Source of the DNA: Schizosaccharomyces osmophilus
Taxonomy: Eukaryota
Direction of reading: 5' to 3'
Assembly: GCF_027921745.1 (NCBI RefSeq)
Contig: NC_079238.1
Span: forward strand, 496,001 to 560,000
DNA length: 64,000 bases
A program made the translations under genes and the position numbers. Shown piece after piece: positions 1 to 50,326 of this stretch; position 1 is the first letter of the stretch; every line of letters starts with the position of its first letter. The notes below the pieces were generated by a model that saw nothing but the letters and a program-made list of their open reading frames with translations, made no database searches and had not been told where the DNA came from.

Positions 1-732
1 GGATTCAGCAACCTTTTGATCATCTTCCATTTTGCTTCTCGAAACCGCCAACGCAAGTATAGCATAAAACGATACCAACCATACACCCTTTGTGTGGTTT
101 GGATCCACATATAATTTGTGTAGTTCGGCCATAAAGTCATTTTCGTAAAATATCGGCCACCAACAGTTAATATAGCGAAAGTACCACTGAATGCGAGCAA
201 CAGCCCATTCATGCTCAGGTACATCAGGAAAGTCCTTATCCCAACTAGGGAAAGAATGAGCAAACAAGTCATCAATATTTGTATCTGAAGGAGATAATTT
301 GAATAGCTTGGAATATTCCTGTAATTTATTATCAACTAATGAGCTAGCGTCTCGAATTTGGGATATCAATGAGGGAAAATCCCGAGTTCGGAATCTACTA
401 GGCGGCTTATAAGAATCCTCAGCAAGGTTCAACAACCTGTCCAGCTTATCCTCAACATTTCGAAGGCGAACATGAAGTGAATAATTATCCTTTGTATCAG
501 GAGATGCGCTAACATCGTAACTAGGACTATCCTCCGATTCAAGTGAAGGCAGCCGAGTCTTCGCTTGTGCATCATTTTTCATTTTGAGACTATACCGCTT
601 CAGTCTCTTTGAATAGTGACATACTTCATTGTAGACCAAACAATTTTGACACCTGGGAAGCTCACGATTACATCGAATCTTTTTCCTCCGGCAAAAGTCA
701 CAAGCTTTCTTGGGTTTTTCGACGCCGTCCAT
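1..732 (-). CDS. Zn(II)2Cys6 fungal transcription factor, 3'-truncated by window edge (SPCC777.02/Toe4-like family)
   Basis: Not in the ORF track. Manual translation from ATG 732 gives 244 open codons to base 1: MDGVEKPKKACDFCRRKKIRCNRELPRCQNCLVYNEVCHYSKRLKR (C-x2-C-x6-C-x6-C-x2-C-x6-C), coiled coil RLRNVEDKLDRLL, and middle-homology region WYFRYINCWWPIFYE. Family assignment is from recalled S. pombe sequences. Confidence 0.93.
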   Translation of the reverse strand, partial: MDGVEKPKKACDFCRRKKIRCNRELPRCQNCLVYNEVCHYSKRLKRYSLKMKNDAQAKTRLPSLESEDSPSYDVSASPDTKDNYSLHVRLRNVEDKLDRLLNLAEDSYKPPSRFRTRDFPSLISQIRDASSLVDNKLQEYSKLFKLSPSDTNIDDLFAHSFPSWDKDFPDVPEHEWAVARIQWYFRYINCWWPIFYENDFMAELHKLYVDPNHTKGVWLVSFYAILALAVSRSKMEDDQKVAES

Positions 733-1298
733 CTGTGAGTTTGCAATTGTTTTATTCTCTACAATTGAGATTCCAATGAATCTAATTCTTAAAATCTAAG
801 AGAACATACGCTAAAGTGTTTCGTTCGGTAGTGTATGGGTATTAGTAAAATTTCGTGAACATTTAGCAAATCGTAATATGAAGATTAATGTTCAGAAGCA
901 AGGAAACGTAGGTAAATTCATTAAATATTCTAATTAATTTGAATATCGATCATATATAAAATTTTTCAATAATAAACACAAGGGCCTTCCAACAAAAACA
1001 AGAAATGTACTTGGAAGGACACCCTAAATTACTCAAACTGAATGAGAGAACCAAAAAGCATAAAGAAGATTATAAGTTTTATTAATTTTGGTCATTCATG
1101 TACTCAACCATGCTACGGCATTCTTAAAGATGGCAAAGAAAGCAAATCATTCTAATATTTCATGGACCATGAAATCTAAGCTTTTGATATTTTCCTCTAT
1201 TCTTGTTCAATTTCTTTTGATCAAAGCGAATTGTATCATAATGAACCGTGCATGTCAACAAAGATCATTGCAGGGGAATTCCCAGGTCGCCGACACGC

Positions 1299-2864
1299 TT
1301 ACCAAGATGAAACCTTCATGCTTCCTTTTTCAAGAAAAGACGTATGCATATTAAATGCTTTATCCAAAAGGACGGGCTCGTGCCCCATCTTTCTTTTTAG
1401 ACAAGCAGATTCTGCCAAAGTAAAATAATCCATCAGGATGGGACGGTAAACAGGATGAGCACAATTTTTGATGACTTTTATTGCTCTTTCTCTCGGGGAG
1501 AGACCACGAAGGTCTGCTAACCCTTGTTCCGTGACGACAATATCAATATCATGTTCTGTATGATCGACGTGTGTCACTTTAGGAACTATGGTAGAGATAC
1601 CGGTTGGATCTGTCTTGGACGGTCTTACAGAGGGAGTGTGCATAATGCTAAGCTTTGCATTTCTCATAAAATCTCCAGAACCTCCAATGCCGTTGAGCAT
1701 CCGACTTCCCATTACACAGGTACTGTTCACATGCCCGTACAAGTCCACTTCCACAGGGGTATTCAGCGAAATGCATCCCAAACGTCGAATTATCTCTGGG
1801 CTATTGGTGATTGCTTGAGGACGGAGAGTCACTCGTTCTTTGTAAAAGTCCCACTCTCTGTAAAAGTTTTCCAGTTCTTGGGGTGAGAAACGAAGAGACA
1901 TGGACGATGCGTACTGAACAGTGCCTGACTTTAGCAAATCCAAAAACGCATCTTGTAAAACTTCAGTCCAAACTTGAAGATTTCGGAAAGAAGAATTACC
2001 AAGCCCTTCGACAACGGAGTTTGCAATGGCACCGATGCCAGATTGGATTGGATGTAAATTATTTGGAAGCCTTCCCCGATGAGTTTCGTGCTTAAAGAAG
2101 TCTATAATATGATGCGAAATTGATTTGGTAGAGCTATTTCCTGGCTCTGTACGAGTTGGAAATTTCCCATGAGATCCCTCAACGATTCCCACAACCTTCC
2201 TAGGATCCAGAGGAATTGCCGTTTTTCCAATTCTGTCTTTAGAAGTACAGACGTTCAGCGGTCTTCGGTAGGGAGGCGAAGTAGGTACGTATAAGTCATG
2301 GATTCCCTGAAGCGAAGGACTATTGGTATTCATTTCGACAATTACCTTTTCAGCTGCTTGGATAAGTTCAGGTGTCACACCTACCGAAGCTCCTGGAACG
2401 AGATCTCCTTCTTCTGTGATCTCTGTAGCTTCTACAATTGCTATATTCAAAGACTGAGGCTTTCCATCCTTTGCACCCAGATGTCCAGATGTCAGCTGCT
2501 CCGCGAAATCTATAAGGGAGTGATCATGAAAATCGATCTTTCCATTGTTTAGACCTTTGTTGATTGATTTGCTTACTTGGTAAGGCGATCTGCTGCGGAC
2601 CATACCTAGTTCAGACAAAGCCAATTCTGTAACTGTACCTCCAGACGAGCATACTCGTAAATCAAACACGGGTCTAGCAAATGATCCATTTGATCTGACC
2701 TCGTTGATCACTGGCTCTAATGACTGCAAAGGATAATCAACTCCAGTAAATCCTGACCAGCCAATCGTCTGGTGACCTTGGAAGTTTGAAAGCAAACTAG
2801 AGGGCTCTATGATTTTGTTCCGCAAATATTTACATCGAACCCGAGACAATAATTTTGAGGACAT
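1299..2864 (-). CDS. Ach1-family acetyl-CoA hydrolase / class I CoA-transferase, divergent paralog, 521 aa
   Basis: Motifs GWSGFTG, RSPYQ, QSGIGAIAN, catalytic WTEVLQD, GIGGSGDF, HVDHTEHD, VTEQGLADLRGLSP. Basic/Ser-rich N-terminus resembles a mitochondrial presequence. Confidence 0.92.
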   Translation of the reverse strand: MSSKLLSRVRCKYLRNKIIEPSSLLSNFQGHQTIGWSGFTGVDYPLQSLEPVINEVRSNGSFARPVFDLRVCSSGGTVTELALSELGMVRSRSPYQVSKSINKGLNNGKIDFHDHSLIDFAEQLTSGHLGAKDGKPQSLNIAIVEATEITEEGDLVPGASVGVTPELIQAAEKVIVEMNTNSPSLQGIHDLYVPTSPPYRRPLNVCTSKDRIGKTAIPLDPRKVVGIVEGSHGKFPTRTEPGNSSTKSISHHIIDFFKHETHRGRLPNNLHPIQSGIGAIANSVVEGLGNSSFRNLQVWTEVLQDAFLDLLKSGTVQYASSMSLRFSPQELENFYREWDFYKERVTLRPQAITNSPEIIRRLGCISLNTPVEVDLYGHVNSTCVMGSRMLNGIGGSGDFMRNAKLSIMHTPSVRPSKTDPTGISTIVPKVTHVDHTEHDIDIVVTEQGLADLRGLSPRERAIKVIKNCAHPVYRPILMDYFTLAESACLKRKMGHEPVLLDKAFNMHTSFLEKGSMKVSSW

Positions 2865-3110
2865 GAAGCAACTTTAAAGTAGCTTGAAACTAAAAAAAGA
2901 AAGAAAAAGAAAAAGAAATGTTACAATTTTTGCCATTTCTCGCGTTGCAGCTTAAAGCACAAAAAGATCTCACCTATTGTTGGGCATCTCTTCTAAGATT
3001 TCACTCGATCTCTGTCTAGTGTGAAGTCTCTCCTCTTGGCGTTTGTTTTTCTTCAGCAAATAAGAAAGGAATATGTAACTTTGGGAACCTGTTGGTAAAT
3101 ACCCAAACAG

Positions 3111-3132
3111 TTTCGGCTGTTAAAAACCGAAA
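3111..3132. promoter_or_regulatory. Inverted CGG-N10-CCG Zn2Cys6-type site (TTTCGG ctgttaaaaa CCGAAA) in a bidirectional promoter
   Basis: 6-bp inverted arms. CGG at 3114-3116 and CCG at 3127-3129 are each 250 bp from the nearer ATG (2864 and 3379). Confidence 0.55.
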
Positions 3133-3378
3133 GCCAAGAAAATTATCTCTCTTTTTATTTGAAGGACGCTTTTTGCTGTGTTTTCGAGCCCGTGCTACAT
3201 TCTACTTATTTACATTGGCCTTCAGGAAGGAATTCTTGAACAAAAGTTGTTGTAAGCGAAAGATCAAAAGCGTCGTCAAAAGTTGACCATTGGAATTGTG
3301 AAAAACTCTCACGGGTCGAGTTGTACATCTTGAGGTTCTCAGAAAACTTTAGTTTATTTCGAATATACTCTCATTAGA

Positions 3379-4749
3379 ATGATCTTGTGGGCGAACAGCA
3401 TCAAAGCTCAAAGGTCAAGGATCGGTACTTTACCGTTTCAGCAGTTTTTAAAGTCGTTTGCAAGCGACTCAAGATTGGGGTTCAATTATGATGCTGCATT
3501 CCAAGGAGAAATTCAAAAAAGAAAAGATACCAGTACTTATAGAGTGTTAAGTAACATTAATCATGTTATCAATCACCAAGGCCCTAAGGCATACACGAAT
3601 GATCACAGAAAGGTAATCGATGTCTGGTGCAGTAATGACTACTTGGGAATGCGGATGAACAACGAAATTTCTAGTGCTATCCACTCGTTTGTCGATAGGT
3701 ACGGTGTTTCTTCAACCGGCTCCAGGAACATTGCCGGGCATAACCAAGTCTTTGTCGACTTGGAGAACTCTTTGGCGAATCTTCATCGAAAGGAAGCTTG
3801 TCTCGTTTTCAACAGTGGTTATGTTGCCAATGACACTACACTCGCTACCCTGGCACAAAAGCTTCCTGGTTGCGTTTTCTTCAGTGATGAGCTAAATCAC
3901 GCCTCCATGATTCAAGGAATTCGAAACGGGAAAGCGGCCAAAGTTATATTTAAGCACAATGATATACAGGATTTGGAAGAAAAACTAAGTAGATACCCTC
4001 AGAAAACTCCTAAAGTCATTGCCTTTGAGTCCATTTACAGCATGAATGGTGATATTGCTCCTATTGAATCCATATGCAGGTTGGCAAAGCAGTATGGTGC
4101 ATTGACATACCTCGACGAGGTTCACGCCGTTGGAATGTATGGAGAACGGGGCGCTGGCGTTACTGCTGCACTGAACATTTCAGATCAAGTAGATGTTATT
4201 ACTGGTTCTTTGGCGAAATCTTATTCAGCGACAGGTGGGTATGCAGCGGGGTCTTCTGCCTTTGTTGATTTCATACGTTCTTTTTGCCCTGGATTCATTT
4301 ACACTTCTAGTCTTCCTCCTCATGATATCGCTGCTGCTTTGACATCTGTGGAGTATCTAAAATCTTCAGACAAGGAAAGAGCCCTTCAAAAGTCTGCCGT
4401 CCGTAAATTAAAAGATGCTCTAAGCGATTCTGGAATCCCTTTCCTTTCCAACCAATCTCATATTGTCCCCATTATGGTTGGGCACCCAGAGTATGGAAGA
4501 TTGATTAGTAGGGATCTTATAAAGGATTACAACATTTATCTCCATCATATTAATTATCCTACTGTTGCAAAGGGAACAGAACGTTTGAGAGTAACGCCTA
4601 CACCTCTACATAATGATGAGGCTATTTTGAAGCACTTTATAAGTGCCCTGAAAGAACTATGGAAAAAATACGATTTGCATGGTATTGATCATTGGAAAGC
4701 AAATGGATTCTCTGTCAATGACCCATGCCACTTTCCTCTTGTAGCATAA
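3379..4749 (+). CDS. 5-aminolevulinate-synthase-like PLP alpha-oxoamine synthase (Hem1 paralog with altered substrate residues), 456 aa
   Basis: VWCSNDYLG, RNIAGH, SDELNHASMI (H174), FESIYSM, DEVHAVG (D246/H249), TGSLAK (K280, PLP lysine), INYPTV, TERLR. Short acid-free basic N-terminus. Confidence 0.9.
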   Translation: MILWANSIKAQRSRIGTLPFQQFLKSFASDSRLGFNYDAAFQGEIQKRKDTSTYRVLSNINHVINHQGPKAYTNDHRKVIDVWCSNDYLGMRMNNEISSAIHSFVDRYGVSSTGSRNIAGHNQVFVDLENSLANLHRKEACLVFNSGYVANDTTLATLAQKLPGCVFFSDELNHASMIQGIRNGKAAKVIFKHNDIQDLEEKLSRYPQKTPKVIAFESIYSMNGDIAPIESICRLAKQYGALTYLDEVHAVGMYGERGAGVTAALNISDQVDVITGSLAKSYSATGGYAAGSSAFVDFIRSFCPGFIYTSSLPPHDIAAALTSVEYLKSSDKERALQKSAVRKLKDALSDSGIPFLSNQSHIVPIMVGHPEYGRLISRDLIKDYNIYLHHINYPTVAKGTERLRVTPTPLHNDEAILKHFISALKELWKKYDLHGIDHWKANGFSVNDPCHFPLVA

Positions 4750-5197
4750 AATTTTAGTATGACAAGCTAGAATGAATTTGATTTACCTTTTGTAAGAAAT
4801 GTAGTACCCATCGATTTTCTTCTTTTTTTCAATTGAAACTATAGATCTCAACTATTGTATGCCAAGCAGTTTATAAAATTGATTGAAATTTATTGAAAGC
4901 GAAACCATGGATGTTCGCTTCTCTGCTTGTCGTACACTCTGATATGCATAAGCTCAAAGCAAGCTTACCAGTGTTAAGACAGCCGAGGTGTCTATGCTTG
5001 TTTTGAATCCTTTCCGCTCAGCTACTAAAACATTGAATACAAATTGAATACAAACTAAAAAAGAAAGCGAAAACTGCATATAAAGTAGATAGAAAAAAAA
5101 AAAAAATAAAGGCTCATTATGGTGTGCCTATATATTCGTCTATGATGAAAAAAGTAAAACAAAAAAGGGTTTCATATCTATGTTAGCATGAGAAGAA

Positions 5198-7327
5198 TTA
5201 TTCATGACAGCTGTGACAGTCCTTCTTTTGTTCATTTTGGTGATCAAAGTAGGGTTCACCAAATGCGAGTCTAGAAGTTGCATCTGTAAGACTTTTTAGT
5301 AAGTCTTGGCCACGGTGAGAAGATTTTTCTTGGTCAGCCTTCACTTTGGAGGTCAATACGTTACGGGATGGAGGAACGTCCAAAGCGGGATTGCGGAGGA
5401 AGAAGTTTCTAGGACGTAAAAGAAGACTGATGGGCTCAGCAGGCATTACAGGGAAGTCTTCAGGTGCGGGAAAGTGGGTAATACCAAAGGTGTGCCAAAC
5501 GACAATATCACTGTTTTCTACATTTCCATCTTGGTTCTCTTCGATCCATTCGGGCAAGCCCTTGGAAGGCTCACCAGAGGTTTGAGGAACGTAGTCACCG
5601 GCGGGATAGAGTTGGCCATCCTTGTAAGGGGTGACATGCATATGATGACGGGCAAAGCCAGCTCGATTGGAGACCAAGGAGCCAGGACGAGCCAGCAATG
5701 GAGGGACTTCACGAGAGACAAGCTTGTAGGAGACGGGCTTTTTGGAGTAAGGATGCAATTTGTTGGGGTTGCAAATCTCCCAAGTACGGGAGGTAGTACC
5801 ATCATAGTCGCTGATGGCTTCTTTGACGGTCTTGGCGACGGTACGTTTATTGGTAAAGGCATTACCGTAGTAGTTTTCTTTGGATCCGGGAAGACCGTCA
5901 CCACTAACGGCATCATTAACGGCGACCGAGTTATCCAAACCATCGACCATGGGGTTGAGACGAAGGCAAAACAAGTGTTGATGATTGTGAGCATTGACTT
6001 GGGGATAGACTTGTGTGCCCCATCCATTGGTGTCCTCGTCTGGATTCATGGCATAAGTATTGAGGATACCAGTAAGTTTGAGTTGGCATTCAATGACACC
6101 GTCCATGTGGAAGGTCCAATAGATCATGTACTCATAGTTGGCAGCAGTGAAAATCTGGGAAACGACGAGCTTGATACCACGGGTGGAGATGGTAGTTTGA
6201 AACTGATCACGGAAATCGGAGTGTTTGAAGAGGACGCCATCGTCTTCTTCGTGGATGCAAATGGCATTCTTTACATGCTGGACTTCACCGGTATGGCGAA
6301 CGAAATGGGCGTCCAAATAATGAATGACACCCTTGCAATCGCAGCCCAAGGCTAAAGGATTGGTAAGGAAGCCGGCACCGTATTCACCCAAGTCAAAAGC
6401 ATGCTTGCGTTGATGGGGATGTTCTGGGTTGCCGTAAGGGACAACCATTTCAGCAAGGGACATGCGATAGAAAAGAGGGCGAACGTTGCCATGGTCGTTG
6501 TAGGTGATATCGGACAAGACAATACCTTCACGGTAGTTGAAGCCAATGTGGAAACGGAAGTTTTGCCATTCAATGTAACGTCCTTTGAGGGTAAAGTTGA
6601 CTCCCTGGGGTTGGGCAATGGCGATGGGCTTGACTTCGCGCATCTTGCCATACTCCTCTTCGGCATCTTTCTGGTTGAAATTGGAGTGCTTATGCTTGGA
6701 TAAGGGTCTGCGGACAGAGGGAATGTCAATAGCAATGACCTTTTTGGCATCGGGGTCGATGACGGGGCAAAAGTCGAGAGGATGGGAGTATTGGGAATCG
6801 TCTTCGTTGGATCGATAGTACATGAGGGCTTGTTGAAGACGACGGCTACTGCCAAATCGCTCATCATAACCAATGGTCCAAGGATCACAATACACGTGGT
6901 CGATTTCATCAGCGGGGACACCGGACAAAATGCATTGTTCTTGAATCTTGGGATCATTGCGAACAACCGATTCGGTTTGTTCCATGGTATCGGCGGTAAT
7001 GATGGGACAAACACCAGTCATGTGTTGCCAATCCAAGATGGATCGTTTGGTCAAATTGACTTTGCCCTCTACGAGTCCTGAAACATCAGCTTCCAAAACC
7101 ACGACGAGTGCAATCCGATCGGGGCGAGGCTGTGCATTGGGATACTGCTTCCAGGCCAAATACTCGTACTTGGGAGGCTCGCTCAGGGTAATCACATTGA
7201 AGCTATACTTGTGCTCGGGGAAGGACTTGCGCACAAGCTCCACAGCCAGCTTTAATTCCTCTGGGCCCAGAGGGTCCATAGGATTTGAATAGTCATCATG
7301 GTGAGGTTGGGAAGGCAAGAGAGTCAT
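5198..7327 (-). CDS. cao1: Copper-containing primary amine oxidase, 709 aa
   Basis: TPQ precursor motif TAANYEY, Cu ligands HNHQH and GITH, catalytic-Asp region AFDLGEYG. Adjacent to amt3, as recalled for S. pombe. Confidence 0.93.
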   Translation of the reverse strand: MTLLPSQPHHDDYSNPMDPLGPEELKLAVELVRKSFPEHKYSFNVITLSEPPKYEYLAWKQYPNAQPRPDRIALVVVLEADVSGLVEGKVNLTKRSILDWQHMTGVCPIITADTMEQTESVVRNDPKIQEQCILSGVPADEIDHVYCDPWTIGYDERFGSSRRLQQALMYYRSNEDDSQYSHPLDFCPVIDPDAKKVIAIDIPSVRRPLSKHKHSNFNQKDAEEEYGKMREVKPIAIAQPQGVNFTLKGRYIEWQNFRFHIGFNYREGIVLSDITYNDHGNVRPLFYRMSLAEMVVPYGNPEHPHQRKHAFDLGEYGAGFLTNPLALGCDCKGVIHYLDAHFVRHTGEVQHVKNAICIHEEDDGVLFKHSDFRDQFQTTISTRGIKLVVSQIFTAANYEYMIYWTFHMDGVIECQLKLTGILNTYAMNPDEDTNGWGTQVYPQVNAHNHQHLFCLRLNPMVDGLDNSVAVNDAVSGDGLPGSKENYYGNAFTNKRTVAKTVKEAISDYDGTTSRTWEICNPNKLHPYSKKPVSYKLVSREVPPLLARPGSLVSNRAGFARHHMHVTPYKDGQLYPAGDYVPQTSGEPSKGLPEWIEENQDGNVENSDIVVWHTFGITHFPAPEDFPVMPAEPISLLLRPRNFFLRNPALDVPPSRNVLTSKVKADQEKSSHRGQDLLKSLTDATSRLAFGEPYFDHQNEQKKDCHSCHE

Positions 7328-7866
7328 TCTAGCTAGCGGCGGGATCGACAGGAATCAATTCCAGTGGTGTACTGATCTCTTTTGGGAAACTTCTTTTGGA
7401 TTGGAAAATGCAAAAGAAAAGGAAAAAGAAAAACAAAGATGAAAATGGAATGAAACAAAAGAAACCAAAATAAACAAAAAACAAATAAGAATAGAAAAAA
7501 AAACCAATATTCTAAAACATAATTAGTATTCTTCATTCAAGTCATGTCTGTTCATGGGCATCACCACGGGCACCATCACATCGCGTCGTCGTCTCTTCTC
7601 TTTCATGGTGGTGCATCTCTCTCTCCCATACACCCACCCACACAATTCCAATGCCACTTCTCTACAGAATGCGTCTATTATGACTTGACTCAACTACCTA
7701 CAATGAATGACCACCTTGCTTACCTCTTCTATACTTACGAGACTTGTTTTTCTGCCTTTGTCCTGAACCGTACCTGCCTCTTTATATACCTTTGGGCTCT
7801 TGGACCCTTAGACCCTTGGACTCTTGCAATCTCCCCTCGTACTATCAGCATCTGAGCAGTCTGTGG

Positions 7867-8383
7867 TTATCATGCGAAATCATATCTAAGGTTCGATGCA
7901 TATACTATCTTGACCACTACATTTATCTTTTCATGAACCTTTTCTTCAACGTTCGTTATCGCTATGCTTTAATTGGGTTACCATTGCTTCGCCATGGCGA
8001 AGGATGGATTTAGGTTGATAAAACCCGAAGTGCGATAAACAAGGGTATCTGATGGAAACATTTCATCATGGATGCAAGGCTCAATACAAACAGTGACGGA
8101 GCTTGGAAAAGTTCTGTTCCATTATTGGGTTGTTTTGAAGGGTTTTCTATTCCATTGCAATTTGATGGTCTTTTGGTACTTTAATAAGTGACTTATGTCG
8201 AATAAAGGAATTGATAGTTTGTTTTGTTTTAGTAGAGATAAACGAGAAGTACGAAAACGAACTATATATACATGCATATGTAGAATTGAAAGGATTTCCA
8301 AAAGTGAAACGAAACAAAAAAGGAATCGGAAAAGGAAAAACGAATCAATTAGTAGGGAAGAACGAAAATCAAAGAATTGATAA
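7867..8383. promoter_or_regulatory. Cluster of GATAA (nitrogen GATA factor-type) motifs in the divergent cao1/amt3 promoter
   Basis: TTATC at 7867, 7923, 7956; GATAA at 8017, 8034, 8237, 8379. Confidence 0.45.
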
Positions 8384-8459
8384 AAAAAAGACGTACCCCC
8401 CTTTAGCGACACCAAACTCAAAGCACAAAGCACAAAGCACAAACCAACATTTACTCAAT

Positions 8460-10031
8460 ATGAACCCTCCATGGAACTCGTCAACTGCTTCTGGTTCTCC
8501 TTTCTTGTTGTTTCGCCGAAATGCCAACTCTAGCATGACCGAGGCAAACGATCTCATGGCAAATACTTACTCGCCAGCCGATATGGCCTATGTCTTGCTT
8601 TGCTGTGTGGTCGTCTTTCTCGTCACCCCCGGTATCGCCCTCTTCTACGCCGGTATGACCCGGAAACGCTCTGCGCTTTCCATTCTCACCCAATCCTTCC
8701 TCGTCACTGCGGTCATCTTAGTTCAATGGTACCTTTTCGGCTACTCGCTGGCCGTGGCTCCTGGCTCTTCTTTTTATGGATCCCTTTCTCTTGGCGGCTT
8801 ACACAATGTTTGGTTCGACCCTTACATCCCCGGTTCCACCATTCCTGCCATCGTCTACTTTCCCTTTGGCGGCCTTTTCGCCGTCACCACTGCCCAACTT
8901 TTGATCGGCGCCATGGCCGAGCGAGGCCGTCTTGTTCCCTCGCTTGTCATCGCCTTTTTGTACATTACCTTCGTTTACTGTCCTCAAGCATATTGGACAT
9001 GGTCCTCCAAGGGTTGGCTTTTCACCATGGGTGCCTTGGACTTTGCCGGTGGTGGTCCCGTCCATATTTCTTCTGGGTTTGCTGCTCTCGCTTACTCATT
9101 CGTTTTGGGTCGCCGTCATGAACCTTCGTTTTCCGAAGACTCTACCAATTCCATTGACGGCGAATTTTCTTCTCAACACGTCGTCCAAGAAGACCCTTCT
9201 TCCCAATCTTGGATTTCCTCCACCATCGTCCCGTGGGGTTCTGTCCGATGGAAGGATTCTCTCGGCCGCGGCCATATTCCCAATTTTCCTGCCCATAATC
9301 CCACCATGGCCTACATCGGTGTCGTCTTCATTTGGTGTTCTTGGCTCACTTTTAATTCCGGAACCCTTCTTGCCATCAATCTTCGCACCGCTTACATTTT
9401 CGCAAACACCCTGATTTCCTCCAGCTTTGCTTGCGTCACCTGGACCGTTGTGGACTATATTCGCTATCGAAAGATATCCGTCCTTGGCGTTTCTGAAGGA
9501 GCCATTGCTGGCTTGGTTGGCATCACGCCTGGCTGTGGTCATGTTTATCCTTGGGGTGCCGCTGTGGCAGGTATTTTCACCGCCATTGTCTGTAACCTCC
9601 TCCACGATATTGGTAATTGGCTTGGCATTGATGAAACTCTTCGCGTCTTCAATTTACATGGAATCGGTGGTATTATGGGCTCCATTGTCTTGGGTGTTGT
9701 TGCCCATCCAAACGTCGCTGCTTCCGACGGTGCCACTGTTATCAAAGGCGGTTGGATCGTTCATCATTGGAAGCAAATGGGCTACCAGTTTGCCTCGTTT
9801 ACCTCCGTTGCTGTCTGGTCCTTTGTCGTCACTGCGGTCATTTGCCTGCTTGTCGACATGATCCCTGGATTGCAAATTCGGTGTACCCCCCAGGAAGAAG
9901 AACAGGGCATGGACTTTGTTGACTTAGTTGAACAAATTGATGAGAAAGCAGGCCCCTCGACCATCCGTGTCATTCAAGCGCAAGAGGTGCAGGAGTCCAT
10001 GGATACTTCTGTTACTAGCAAGAAACAATGA
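8460..10031 (+). CDS. amt3: Amt/Mep ammonium transporter, ~523 aa
   Basis: First ATG is at 8460 (the ORF track starts at upstream TTG 8211). LDFAGGGPVH and FNLHGIGG twin-His motifs, GAMAER, GLVGITP, many hydrophobic helices. Confidence 0.9.
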   Translation: MNPPWNSSTASGSPFLLFRRNANSSMTEANDLMANTYSPADMAYVLLCCVVVFLVTPGIALFYAGMTRKRSALSILTQSFLVTAVILVQWYLFGYSLAVAPGSSFYGSLSLGGLHNVWFDPYIPGSTIPAIVYFPFGGLFAVTTAQLLIGAMAERGRLVPSLVIAFLYITFVYCPQAYWTWSSKGWLFTMGALDFAGGGPVHISSGFAALAYSFVLGRRHEPSFSEDSTNSIDGEFSSQHVVQEDPSSQSWISSTIVPWGSVRWKDSLGRGHIPNFPAHNPTMAYIGVVFIWCSWLTFNSGTLLAINLRTAYIFANTLISSSFACVTWTVVDYIRYRKISVLGVSEGAIAGLVGITPGCGHVYPWGAAVAGIFTAIVCNLLHDIGNWLGIDETLRVFNLHGIGGIMGSIVLGVVAHPNVAASDGATVIKGGWIVHHWKQMGYQFASFTSVAVWSFVVTAVICLLVDMIPGLQIRCTPQEEEQGMDFVDLVEQIDEKAGPSTIRVIQAQEVQESMDTSVTSKKQ

Positions 10032-49573: not shown

Positions 49574-50326
49574 ATGAAGTCGATATTGTTGCTAAAGACT
49601 GAGTCCAAACCGGTCGATCCGTATATTGATGCATTTCGACAGTACCAACGAAATGCATTTTTTTTGGCAGTTTTACAGCATCAACCCATAAACGAAAACA
49701 TTTTACAAATCAAGCTTTCTCAGTTGTTGTCCAATTATTGCGGATTGATTGTGACCAGTCAGCGAGTTAGTGAAACCCTTAGTGCTGCGTTGAAACAGTT
49801 GGATAAATCCACTCAAAAAACCATTTTGAACTCGATTCCGGTCTTTACGGTGGGTCCGGCAACAGATGACAGTATTCGAAGACTAGGATTCCAACAAACG
49901 TTTGGCAGGGATTGCGGGCGCGGTGAAACCTTGGCTGATCTCATCCAAGGTTGGTACCAAAAGACTCGTCCATCAAAGCCTTTGCTCTTTTTATTAGGTG
50001 AAAAGCATCGCGATATTATTCCTAAAAAATTAGGGCGAGACCGCATTGAAGAGTTGGTAGTTTATGTAACTCAAGAGTTCGAGCAAAGTCAAAGCCAGGT
50101 TTCAGCTATCATTAAAAAACACCCAGAAATCGACTGGATCGTTGTCTTTAGCCCTACACAACTTTGCTCAAAATTAGCTTCTTTTTCAAGGAAATTAGCA
50201 ACCATAGGCCCTACTACAGGAAATCATCTTCAAAAGCTTGGCATCGAGCCAAACCTTGTTTCTTCGGCTCCTAATCCAGTCAGTTTAGCGTCAGGAATAT
50301 ATGAATATGATCAAAAACATGAATGA
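49574..50326 (+). CDS. ups1: Uroporphyrinogen-III synthase (Hem4), 250 aa
   Basis: LLKT..DPY, LIVTSQR, VGPAT, VFSP, IGPTT. Confidence 0.92.
   Translation: MKSILLLKTESKPVDPYIDAFRQYQRNAFFLAVLQHQPINENILQIKLSQLLSNYCGLIVTSQRVSETLSAALKQLDKSTQKTILNSIPVFTVGPATDDSIRRLGFQQTFGRDCGRGETLADLIQGWYQKTRPSKPLLFLLGEKHRDIIPKKLGRDRIEELVVYVTQEFEQSQSQVSAIIKKHPEIDWIVVFSPTQLCSKLASFSRKLATIGPTTGNHLQKLGIEPNLVSSAPNPVSLASGIYEYDQKHE

Follow-up and report, generated by a model that had tools for sequence, protein, structure and literature searches.

What might a fission yeast make with extra copies of 5-aminolevulinate (ALA) synthase (ALAS) and of an acetate CoA-transferase that stand head-to-head? The question is raised by segment 1-4749, the part analysed here, of a 64,000-nucleotide window of Schizosaccharomyces osmophilus DNA (assembly GCF_027921745.1, contig NC_079238.1, positions 496,001 to 560,000); all coordinates below are positions in that window. 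On the minus strand, 1299..2864 encodes Ach1b (protein P0121), a 521-residue Ach1 paralog of the acetyl-CoA hydrolase/transferase family and a class I CoA-transferase. On the plus strand, 3379..4749 encodes a 456-residue alpha-oxoamine synthase paralogous to ALAS ("Hem1b", protein P0001; hereafter the ALAS copy). An earlier interpretation made from the letters alone, here called the sequence-only reading, held that the two yield or degrade an aminoketone other than ALA, and named no product. We likewise judge ALA improbable, and the evidence points to biotin. With a probability of roughly 0.55, we propose that the pair carries out the two opening steps that fission-yeast biotin synthesis otherwise lacks, with Ach1b as a pimelate-activating enzyme and the ALAS copy as a synthase of 8-amino-7-oxononanoate (KAPA).

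In this scheme, pimelate, or a related dicarboxylate, would receive CoA from acetyl-CoA or succinyl-CoA through Ach1b. The resulting pimeloyl-CoA would be joined to L-alanine by the ALAS copy to give KAPA, probably in mitochondria. Bio3, Bio4 and Bio2, all encoded elsewhere, would then complete biotin. The pimelate may be scavenged, or Ach1b may use a shorter precursor. From S. pombe the pair would have disappeared along with bio3 and bio4, and only bio2 and the biotin importer would be left. The substrates, products, location and co-regulation given here are those that we infer for the pair.

Two ancient duplicates with remodelled active sites

Gene patterns are written in the order osmophilus:pombe:octosporus:cryophilus:japonicus and derive from the orthogroups of PMC10085805 (tables S4 and S10). 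Separate canonical Hem1 (544-558 residues) and Ach1 proteins exist in all five species, so that both enzymes of the pair are extra paralogs, as the sequence-only reading had supposed; each has the pattern 1:0:1:1:1 and is absent from S. pombe. The S. osmophilus genes SOMG_00226 (toe3), SOMG_00227, SOMG_00228 and SOMG_00229 (cao1) match those of the window in order, strand and length. The closest proteins to the pair are those of S. octosporus (88-90% identity) and S. cryophilus (86-87%). Linkage persists in these two species, where the pair lies between toe3 and cao1 under consecutive accessions after cao1, but not in S. japonicus, whose enzymes (SJAG_02985 and SJAG_00097) are on different chromosomes.

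Between S. osmophilus and S. japonicus the copies are 59% and 56% identical, compared with 67% and 75% for their parents, and by this measure both are faster-evolving than the parents yet intact. Decay of the duplicates is ruled out, as their lengths agree and their frames are uninterrupted across the four species, with 88-90% identity to S. octosporus. On these comparisons, both enzymes are ancient intact duplicates, of hem1, the gene for ALA synthase, and of ach1.

The descent of the ALAS copy was examined in several ways. In a quick tree of 49 sequences the copies form a clade (support 100) whose sister is Schizosaccharomyces Hem1 (SH-aLRT 94), with a stem of length 1.45 as against 0.19. 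In a 21-sequence tree with long bacterial outgroups they branch at the base of the fungal sequences; their grouping with an AlmA-like enzyme of Bacillus is not rejected by an approximately unbiased (AU) test (p 0.09). The copies and Schizosaccharomyces Hem1 have in common a C-terminal tail and a one-residue insertion, and the GC content and third-position GC content (GC3) of the pair match those of neighbouring genes. The shared tail, the insertion and the unremarkable GC3 favour duplication, and horizontal transfer of the ALAS copy from bacteria appears unlikely. Among 80 metagenome loci (4 of 64 parts scanned) there was no relative above 52% identity, and an atlas search returned only ALAS-type clusters. 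The four Ach1b orthologs likewise form one clade (100), whose attachment point is not settled and carries a long-branch warning.

Active-site changes had been claimed for both enzymes, and they are present in each, on catalytic cores that are intact. The ALAS copy scores 533 bits on TIGR01821 against a cut-off of 339 (Schizosaccharomyces Hem1, 595-618) and retains R55, N86, H174, D246, H249, the pyridoxal phosphate-bound Lys280, T395 and R404. Its AlphaFold model (mean pLDDT 80.6) best matches ALAS (Z 48.3, root-mean-square deviation 2.1, 375 residues aligned). The retained residues include the equivalents of Arg21 and Thr365, which bind the dicarboxylic acyl chain and which we take to hold the distal carboxylate of the acyl donor; their conservation points to a dicarboxylic acyl donor for this enzyme. 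Cys-Pro (CP) haem-regulatory motifs number zero in all four copies versus two in each of the three Hem1 proteins checked. A presequence-like N-terminus had been suggested for both members of the pair. The suggestion suits the ALAS copy, in which the first 30 or so residues are basic and nearly free of acidic residues in all four orthologs. It does not suit Ach1b, whose N-terminus is alignable to that of bacterial AarC beginning at residue 7, shares its start and overall length with canonical Ach1, and is thus part of the fold and no presequence.

The clearest departure from ALAS lies at the amino-acid specificity gate, Thr83 of R. capsulatus ALAS. Here the ALAS copy has Ser115 (codon 3721..3723, plus strand), and lacks the threonine glycine gate of ALAS. 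Serine occupies the position in three orthologs and alanine in S. japonicus; Thr83 is found in 217 of 217 database relatives of ALAS and at 80 of 80 metagenome loci, and serine in 62 of 63 BioF proteins (those among 80 fetched loci that had a bioA, bioB or bioD neighbour and an intact frame). According to passages of PMC11906848 and PMC9356726, the residue is serine in AONS (the E. coli KAPA synthase), serine palmitoyltransferase and AlmA, threonine in ALAS and valine in Kbl, and a smaller side chain at this point lets in larger amino acids. Tyrosine replaces Phe276 in all four copies (Tyr308 in S. osmophilus, codon 4300..4302, plus strand, equivalent to Tyr264 of E. coli BioF); phenylalanine is present there in 99% of the 217 ALAS relatives and tyrosine in 48 of the 63 BioF proteins. 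The Phe23 position, in a poorly aligned region, is leucine in the copies and in 28 of the 63. Both positions presumably border the substrate channel; phenylalanine stands at each of them in the Bacillus AlmA-like enzyme. Altogether, 35 of 203 columns conserved in ALAS are changed in all four copies. The ALAS copy is an ALAS-derived enzyme that probably acts in the manner of BioF.

It could instead be another ALA synthase, insensitive to haem and provided with succinyl-CoA of its own, for use under particular conditions, for example low oxygen or iron stress. The family score above cut-off, the ALAS fold, the retained catalytic and succinyl-binding residues and the loss of haem motifs would all fit such an enzyme, and Ach1-family enzymes produce succinyl-CoA. 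However, Thr83 is invariant in the 297 ALAS sequences examined, serine at this position makes AlmA a poor ALA synthase (as stated in parts of PMC9356726), 35 conserved columns are altered in all four copies, and a canonical hem1 is present in every species. We regard this alternative as improbable.

Position 83 also brings AlmA itself into consideration. As described in sections of PMC9356726 and PMC12006855, AlmA has Ser82 and Gly86 and joins serine or alanine to succinyl-CoA. A comparable ALAS copy would join L-serine or L-alanine to succinyl-CoA from Ach1b, and the product would be an ALA analogue that inhibits the porphobilinogen synthase of competitors, perhaps after N-acetylation by an unlinked GNAT enzyme. 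The serine or alanine at position 83, the additional Gly87 of the S. japonicus copy, the AU result given above, and the 1:0:1:1:1 patterns of a GNAT (OG-4549) and an MFS transporter (OG-4547) are all in keeping with this possibility. However, Ser82 and Gly86 occur together in no copy, positions 83 and 87 being Ser/Ala in S. osmophilus and Ala/Gly in S. japonicus. Moreover, the pair lacks the clustered GNAT, oxidoreductase and exporter genes of alm clusters (its neighbours are toe3 and cao1), and the annotation of OG-4547 is that of a glycerophosphodiester importer. Canonical Ach1 already serves for succinyl-CoA, which would leave the remodelled copy unexplained, and the best trees and the shared C-terminal tail put the copies with or beside fungal Hem1. 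An AlmA-like role is therefore unlikely.

Gly87 alone is no mark of AlmA, as 22 of the 80 metagenome ALAS loci combine it with Thr83. A Bacillus thuringiensis plasmid (L003:1-5995) carries a "hemA" with Ser83 and Gly87 beside genes for GNAT, oxidoreductase, MFS and LysR proteins; this cluster, alaremycin-like in content, bears a haem-synthesis annotation. The canonical S. osmophilus Hem1 (P0347) has serine where S. pombe has phenylalanine in an active-site loop (INSPTV), and serine also occupies this position in the S. japonicus ALAS copy and the AlmA-like enzyme.

A third outcome of a change at the gate would be a cyclising ALAS, for which Thr83-to-Ser is the key mark (PMC4525017). Ach1b would then form ALA-CoA, and the ALAS copy would close it to a C5N unit. 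Of the three changes T83S, I149L/V and T365S only the first is present, as the residues usual in ALAS remain at positions 149 (Ile) and 365 (Thr), and neither an amide synthase nor an acyl-CoA ligase was found nearby. We consider this outcome very improbable.

Ach1b has been altered in a comparable manner. AarC residues Glu294, Asn347, Gly388 and Ser71, whose catalytic and substrate roles are taken from portions of PMC4876117, are kept as E301, N354, G395 and S74. Nevertheless, 37 of 288 columns conserved among 117 relatives are changed in all four Ach1b orthologs, with 19 of these in residues 31-131, around the Ser71/Thr94 site of AarC, and 2 in the 230s loop. At the positions of the AarC carboxylate site (Ser71, Thr94, Arg228) Ach1b has Ser, Val and approximately Phe235; Thr94 and Arg228 are likewise missing from canonical fungal Ach1. 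A changed pocket combined with conserved catalytic residues argues for a changed acid rather than a dead enzyme. The comparison suggests that the acyl-binding domain has been remodelled for a new acid substrate, whose identity it does not indicate.

A proposed head of the biotin pathway

The distribution of biotin genes offers a clue that the pair may belong to this pathway. The KAPA-consuming 7,8-diaminopelargonic acid (DAPA) aminotransferase gene, bio3, has the same 1:0:1:1:1 pattern as the pair, bio4 has nearly the same (1:0:1:1:0), and bio2 and vht1 are present in all five species. Neither bio3 nor bio4 is linked to the pair. Only 27 of 5,098 S. osmophilus genes are annotated from S. japonicus, which serves as a proxy for genes kept in that species with no S. 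pombe ortholog called, and bio3 and both enzymes are among them; several of the 27 bear the names of S. pombe genes, and for these an ortholog was probably missed. Two parts of the orthogroup table contain 45 and 47 four-species groups, of which 2 and 7, respectively, have the 1:0:1:1:1 pattern.

A text search of annotations found no KAPA synthase, BioF, Bio6, Bio1, Bio5 or pimelate enzyme named among the table rows listed. Among 15 S. osmophilus proteins described as "aminotransferase", the ALAS copy is the sole class I/II member left unexplained. KAPA is the product of an alpha-oxoamine synthase acting on alanine and a pimeloyl thioester, according to passages of PMC11906848. Because the lower part of the pathway is present in the four species with no annotated upper part, and the chemistry of the pair is that of the upper part, the two enzymes are candidates for the first steps.

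Several observations weigh against this proposal. Serine at position 83 is equally a mark of AlmA and of cyclising ALAS. Beyond the few positions described above, there is no convergence of the whole protein on BioF across the conserved columns, since departures toward BioF amount to 26-29% in the copies compared with a mean of 30% in 31 control ALAS sequences. The copies score 306-314 bits on the BioF model TIGR00858, below the cut-off of 426 and within the range of fungal Hem1 (297-323). Arg349 of the BioF IRPPTV loop has not been gained, the ALAS copy having Asn392 like ALAS, and AONS structures match its model at Z 39-41, below the 48.3 for ALAS. The ALAS copy is thus, as judged from sequence, no BioF family member by descent. 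The absence of a true BioF is a matter of annotation text rather than of a homology search of the genome. The GNAT and MFS orthogroups mentioned above, as well as a glutathione S-transferase, share the 1:0:1:1:1 pattern, so that co-loss is not unique to biotin.

Precedents from other fungi add to these reservations. As related in sections of PMC7187267 and PMC7267198, S. cerevisiae S288C has BIO3 and BIO4 without BIO1 and BIO6 and imports KAPA, and feeding of pimelate is of no help to S. cerevisiae. In a biotin-free test of 35 yeasts, of which eleven grew, S. japonicus CBS 5679 is not among the six fast growers named in parts of PMC7267198. The characterised fungal BioF is peroxisomal, according to excerpts of PMC13647351.

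Some features of the biotin genes themselves deserve mention. In S. japonicus, bio3 (SJAG_00673) adjoins SJAG_00672, which has no orthogroup and lies where bio4 would be; this "japonicus-specific" gene may be a missed Bio4. In S. osmophilus, bio4 and bio3 (SOMG_02149 and SOMG_02150) are separate genes of bacterial size that follow each other in tandem on a single strand with 178 bp between them, in bioD-bioA order, an arrangement that may be a trace of bacterial operon transfer. The S. japonicus Ach1b gene adjoins SJAG_02986, which encodes an amino acid/polyamine transporter specific to that species; Bio5, by which S. cerevisiae imports KAPA, belongs to that broad family. At 2 of the 80 metagenome loci (L144:2677-3996 and L136:4442-5725) an ordinary Thr83 ALAS is immediately preceded, on its upstream side, by a class III aminotransferase with 29% identity to E. 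coli BioA.

The history of the pair may be one of re-invention, in the fission-yeast ancestor, out of primary metabolism, in which an ALA synthase became a KAPA synthase, an acetate CoA-transferase took on pimelate activation, and the auxotrophy of S. pombe arose by later loss together with bio3 and bio4. We give this history, the biotin role included, even odds. Within it, the proposed CoA-transfer route to pimeloyl-CoA would be unlike those of BioW, BioC-BioH, BioI, BioZ, BioE and yeast Bio1.

Promoter, regulator and flanking genes

The sequence-only reading described three adjacent intron-free genes, and three uninterrupted open reading frames are indeed found within 1-4749 (732..<1, minus; 2864..1299, minus; 3379..4749, plus), with Ach1b and the ALAS copy head-to-head across 514 bp (2865..3378) that would form a divergent, bidirectional promoter region. 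Its exact midpoint, as had been noted, coincides with the centre (3121.5) of a CGG-N10-CCG site, CGGCTGTTAAAAACCG, at 3114..3129. This site lies within an inverted repeat TTTCGG-N10-CCGAAA (3111..3132), which is a candidate target for the dimer of a Zn2Cys6 factor that is not Toe3. In post hoc dinucleotide shuffles of the gap (n=5000), CGG-N10-CCG appeared in 0.8% and any inverted CGG-N0-16-CCG in 14%, and the 6-bp arms TTTCGG/CCGAAA were matched in 0.45% of 2000 shuffles. There were no Rfam matches within 1-8500.

The third frame (1..732, minus strand) is the 5′ part of a toe3 ortholog, of which only the first 244 codons fall inside the window. It encodes a Zn2Cys6 domain at residues 9-47 and is probably a neighbour outside the module. 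Downstream of the ALAS copy lies the copper amine oxidase gene cao1 (5198..7327, minus strand), a flanking gene that serves as a synteny marker against S. octosporus, S. cryophilus and S. pombe. Control by the neighbouring transcription factor had been part of the original proposal; with that factor identified as Toe3, and extended to the flanks, the pair would form a Toe3-controlled amine or aminoketone module linked to the flanking amine oxidase and agmatinase. The placement of the pair between toe3 and cao1 in three species would agree with such a module, and alpha-oxoamine synthases are able to run in reverse. However, toe3, cao1, agmatinase and an amino-acid transporter around the pair, like amt3, are distributed 1:1:1:1:0, opposite to the pair at the two informative species, as S. 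pombe keeps toe3 and has lost the enzymes and S. japonicus keeps the enzymes and has no toe3. In S. japonicus the two enzymes are not even linked to each other. Toe3 ChIP peaks in S. pombe are enriched for everted CCRYGG, according to parts of bioRxiv 2024.08.20.607873, and there is no such motif in the gap (2865-3378). Retention of Arg21 and Thr365, and serine rather than valine at position 83, also argue against a Kbl-type acetyl-CoA enzyme. The opposite distribution and the missing motif leave Toe3 control unsupported, and we find the module as a whole distinctly improbable.

A Toe3-type everted site, CCACGG, is present at 7564-7569, upstream of cao1. A different Zn2Cys6 gene, OG-4599, has the 1:0:1:1:1 pattern of the pair and of bio3, and its product is a better candidate than Toe3 for binding the inverted site at 3111-3132. 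Farther along the window, 49574-50326 is a 250-residue open reading frame, which we take to be a look-alike of uroporphyrinogen-III synthase and which is probably unrelated to the pair.

Comparison with known systems

Where yeasts obtain the pimeloyl group is called elusive in passages of PMC7187267 and PMC7267198, and two concrete candidate enzymes can now be named for the pimeloyl and KAPA steps. In the literature searched, with subscription papers outside its scope, there was no mention of any of six gene identifiers; a description of a fission-yeast ALAS/biotin pair was likewise absent from this literature and from the main texts of the genome paper and the SOG preprint. If the biotin proposal is true, the locus would hold a natural conversion of an ALAS to a KAPA synthase, revealing which few residues switch substrates in this family, and would mean that yeasts have rebuilt the biotin pathway independently for a second time, with other parts. 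It would also explain the biotin requirement of S. pombe, offer a possible route to biotin-independent yeasts, and call for the relabelling of four "5-aminolevulinate synthase" and four "acetyl-CoA hydrolase" genes. Were the AlmA-like alternative true, an alaremycin-like product in yeast would be equally undescribed.

The nearest analogy is the BIO1-BIO6 pair of S. cerevisiae, a linked, duplicate-derived pair that fills the pimeloyl and KAPA steps (sections of PMC7187267 and PMC7267198, quoting Hall and Dietrich 2007). In both cases a two-gene unit produced by duplication and neofunctionalisation would stand upstream of separate BIO3 and BIO4 genes and has been lost in some lineages, although for the fission-yeast unit the function is that proposed here. 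The parents differ, as Bio6 arose from Bio3 and Bio1 from YJR154W, whereas the fission-yeast parents are hem1 and ach1. With BioF (E. coli, PDB 1DJE) the ALAS copy shares alpha-oxoamine synthase chemistry, the serine gate, tyrosine at the position of residue 264, Arg21/Thr352-type residues, and the co-occurrence in the genome of BioA and BioD equivalents (bio3 and bio4). It differs from BioF in its identity of about 25%, its score below the BioF cut-off, its lack of Arg349 and its ALAS ancestry, as well as in having an N-terminal presequence-like segment, no peroxisomal signal and no clustering with bioA, bioD or bioB.

Compared with fungal Hem1 (S. pombe hem1; S. cerevisiae PDB 5TXR), the ALAS copy has the same fold and C-terminal tail and is 52% identical to the S. 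osmophilus protein, but is shorter by about 100 residues at the N-terminus, has no CP motifs, and carries serine or alanine in place of Thr83. AlmA (as portrayed in parts of PMC9356726) and cyclising ALAS (PMC4525017) are also ALAS-like enzymes with Ser83 that make products other than ALA. They are, however, bacterial, keep Phe276, are clustered with GNAT, oxidoreductase and MFS genes or with an amide synthase and ligase, and have no CoA-transferase partner. Finally, Ach1b resembles the succinyl-CoA:acetate CoA-transferases Ach1 and AarC (PDB 8DH7 and 4EU3) in being a class I enzyme with the equivalents of Glu294, Asn347, Gly388 and Ser71. It is nevertheless only 55% identical to the canonical Ach1 of its own species, with replacements at acyl-site and 230s-loop residues that are invariant in 117 relatives.

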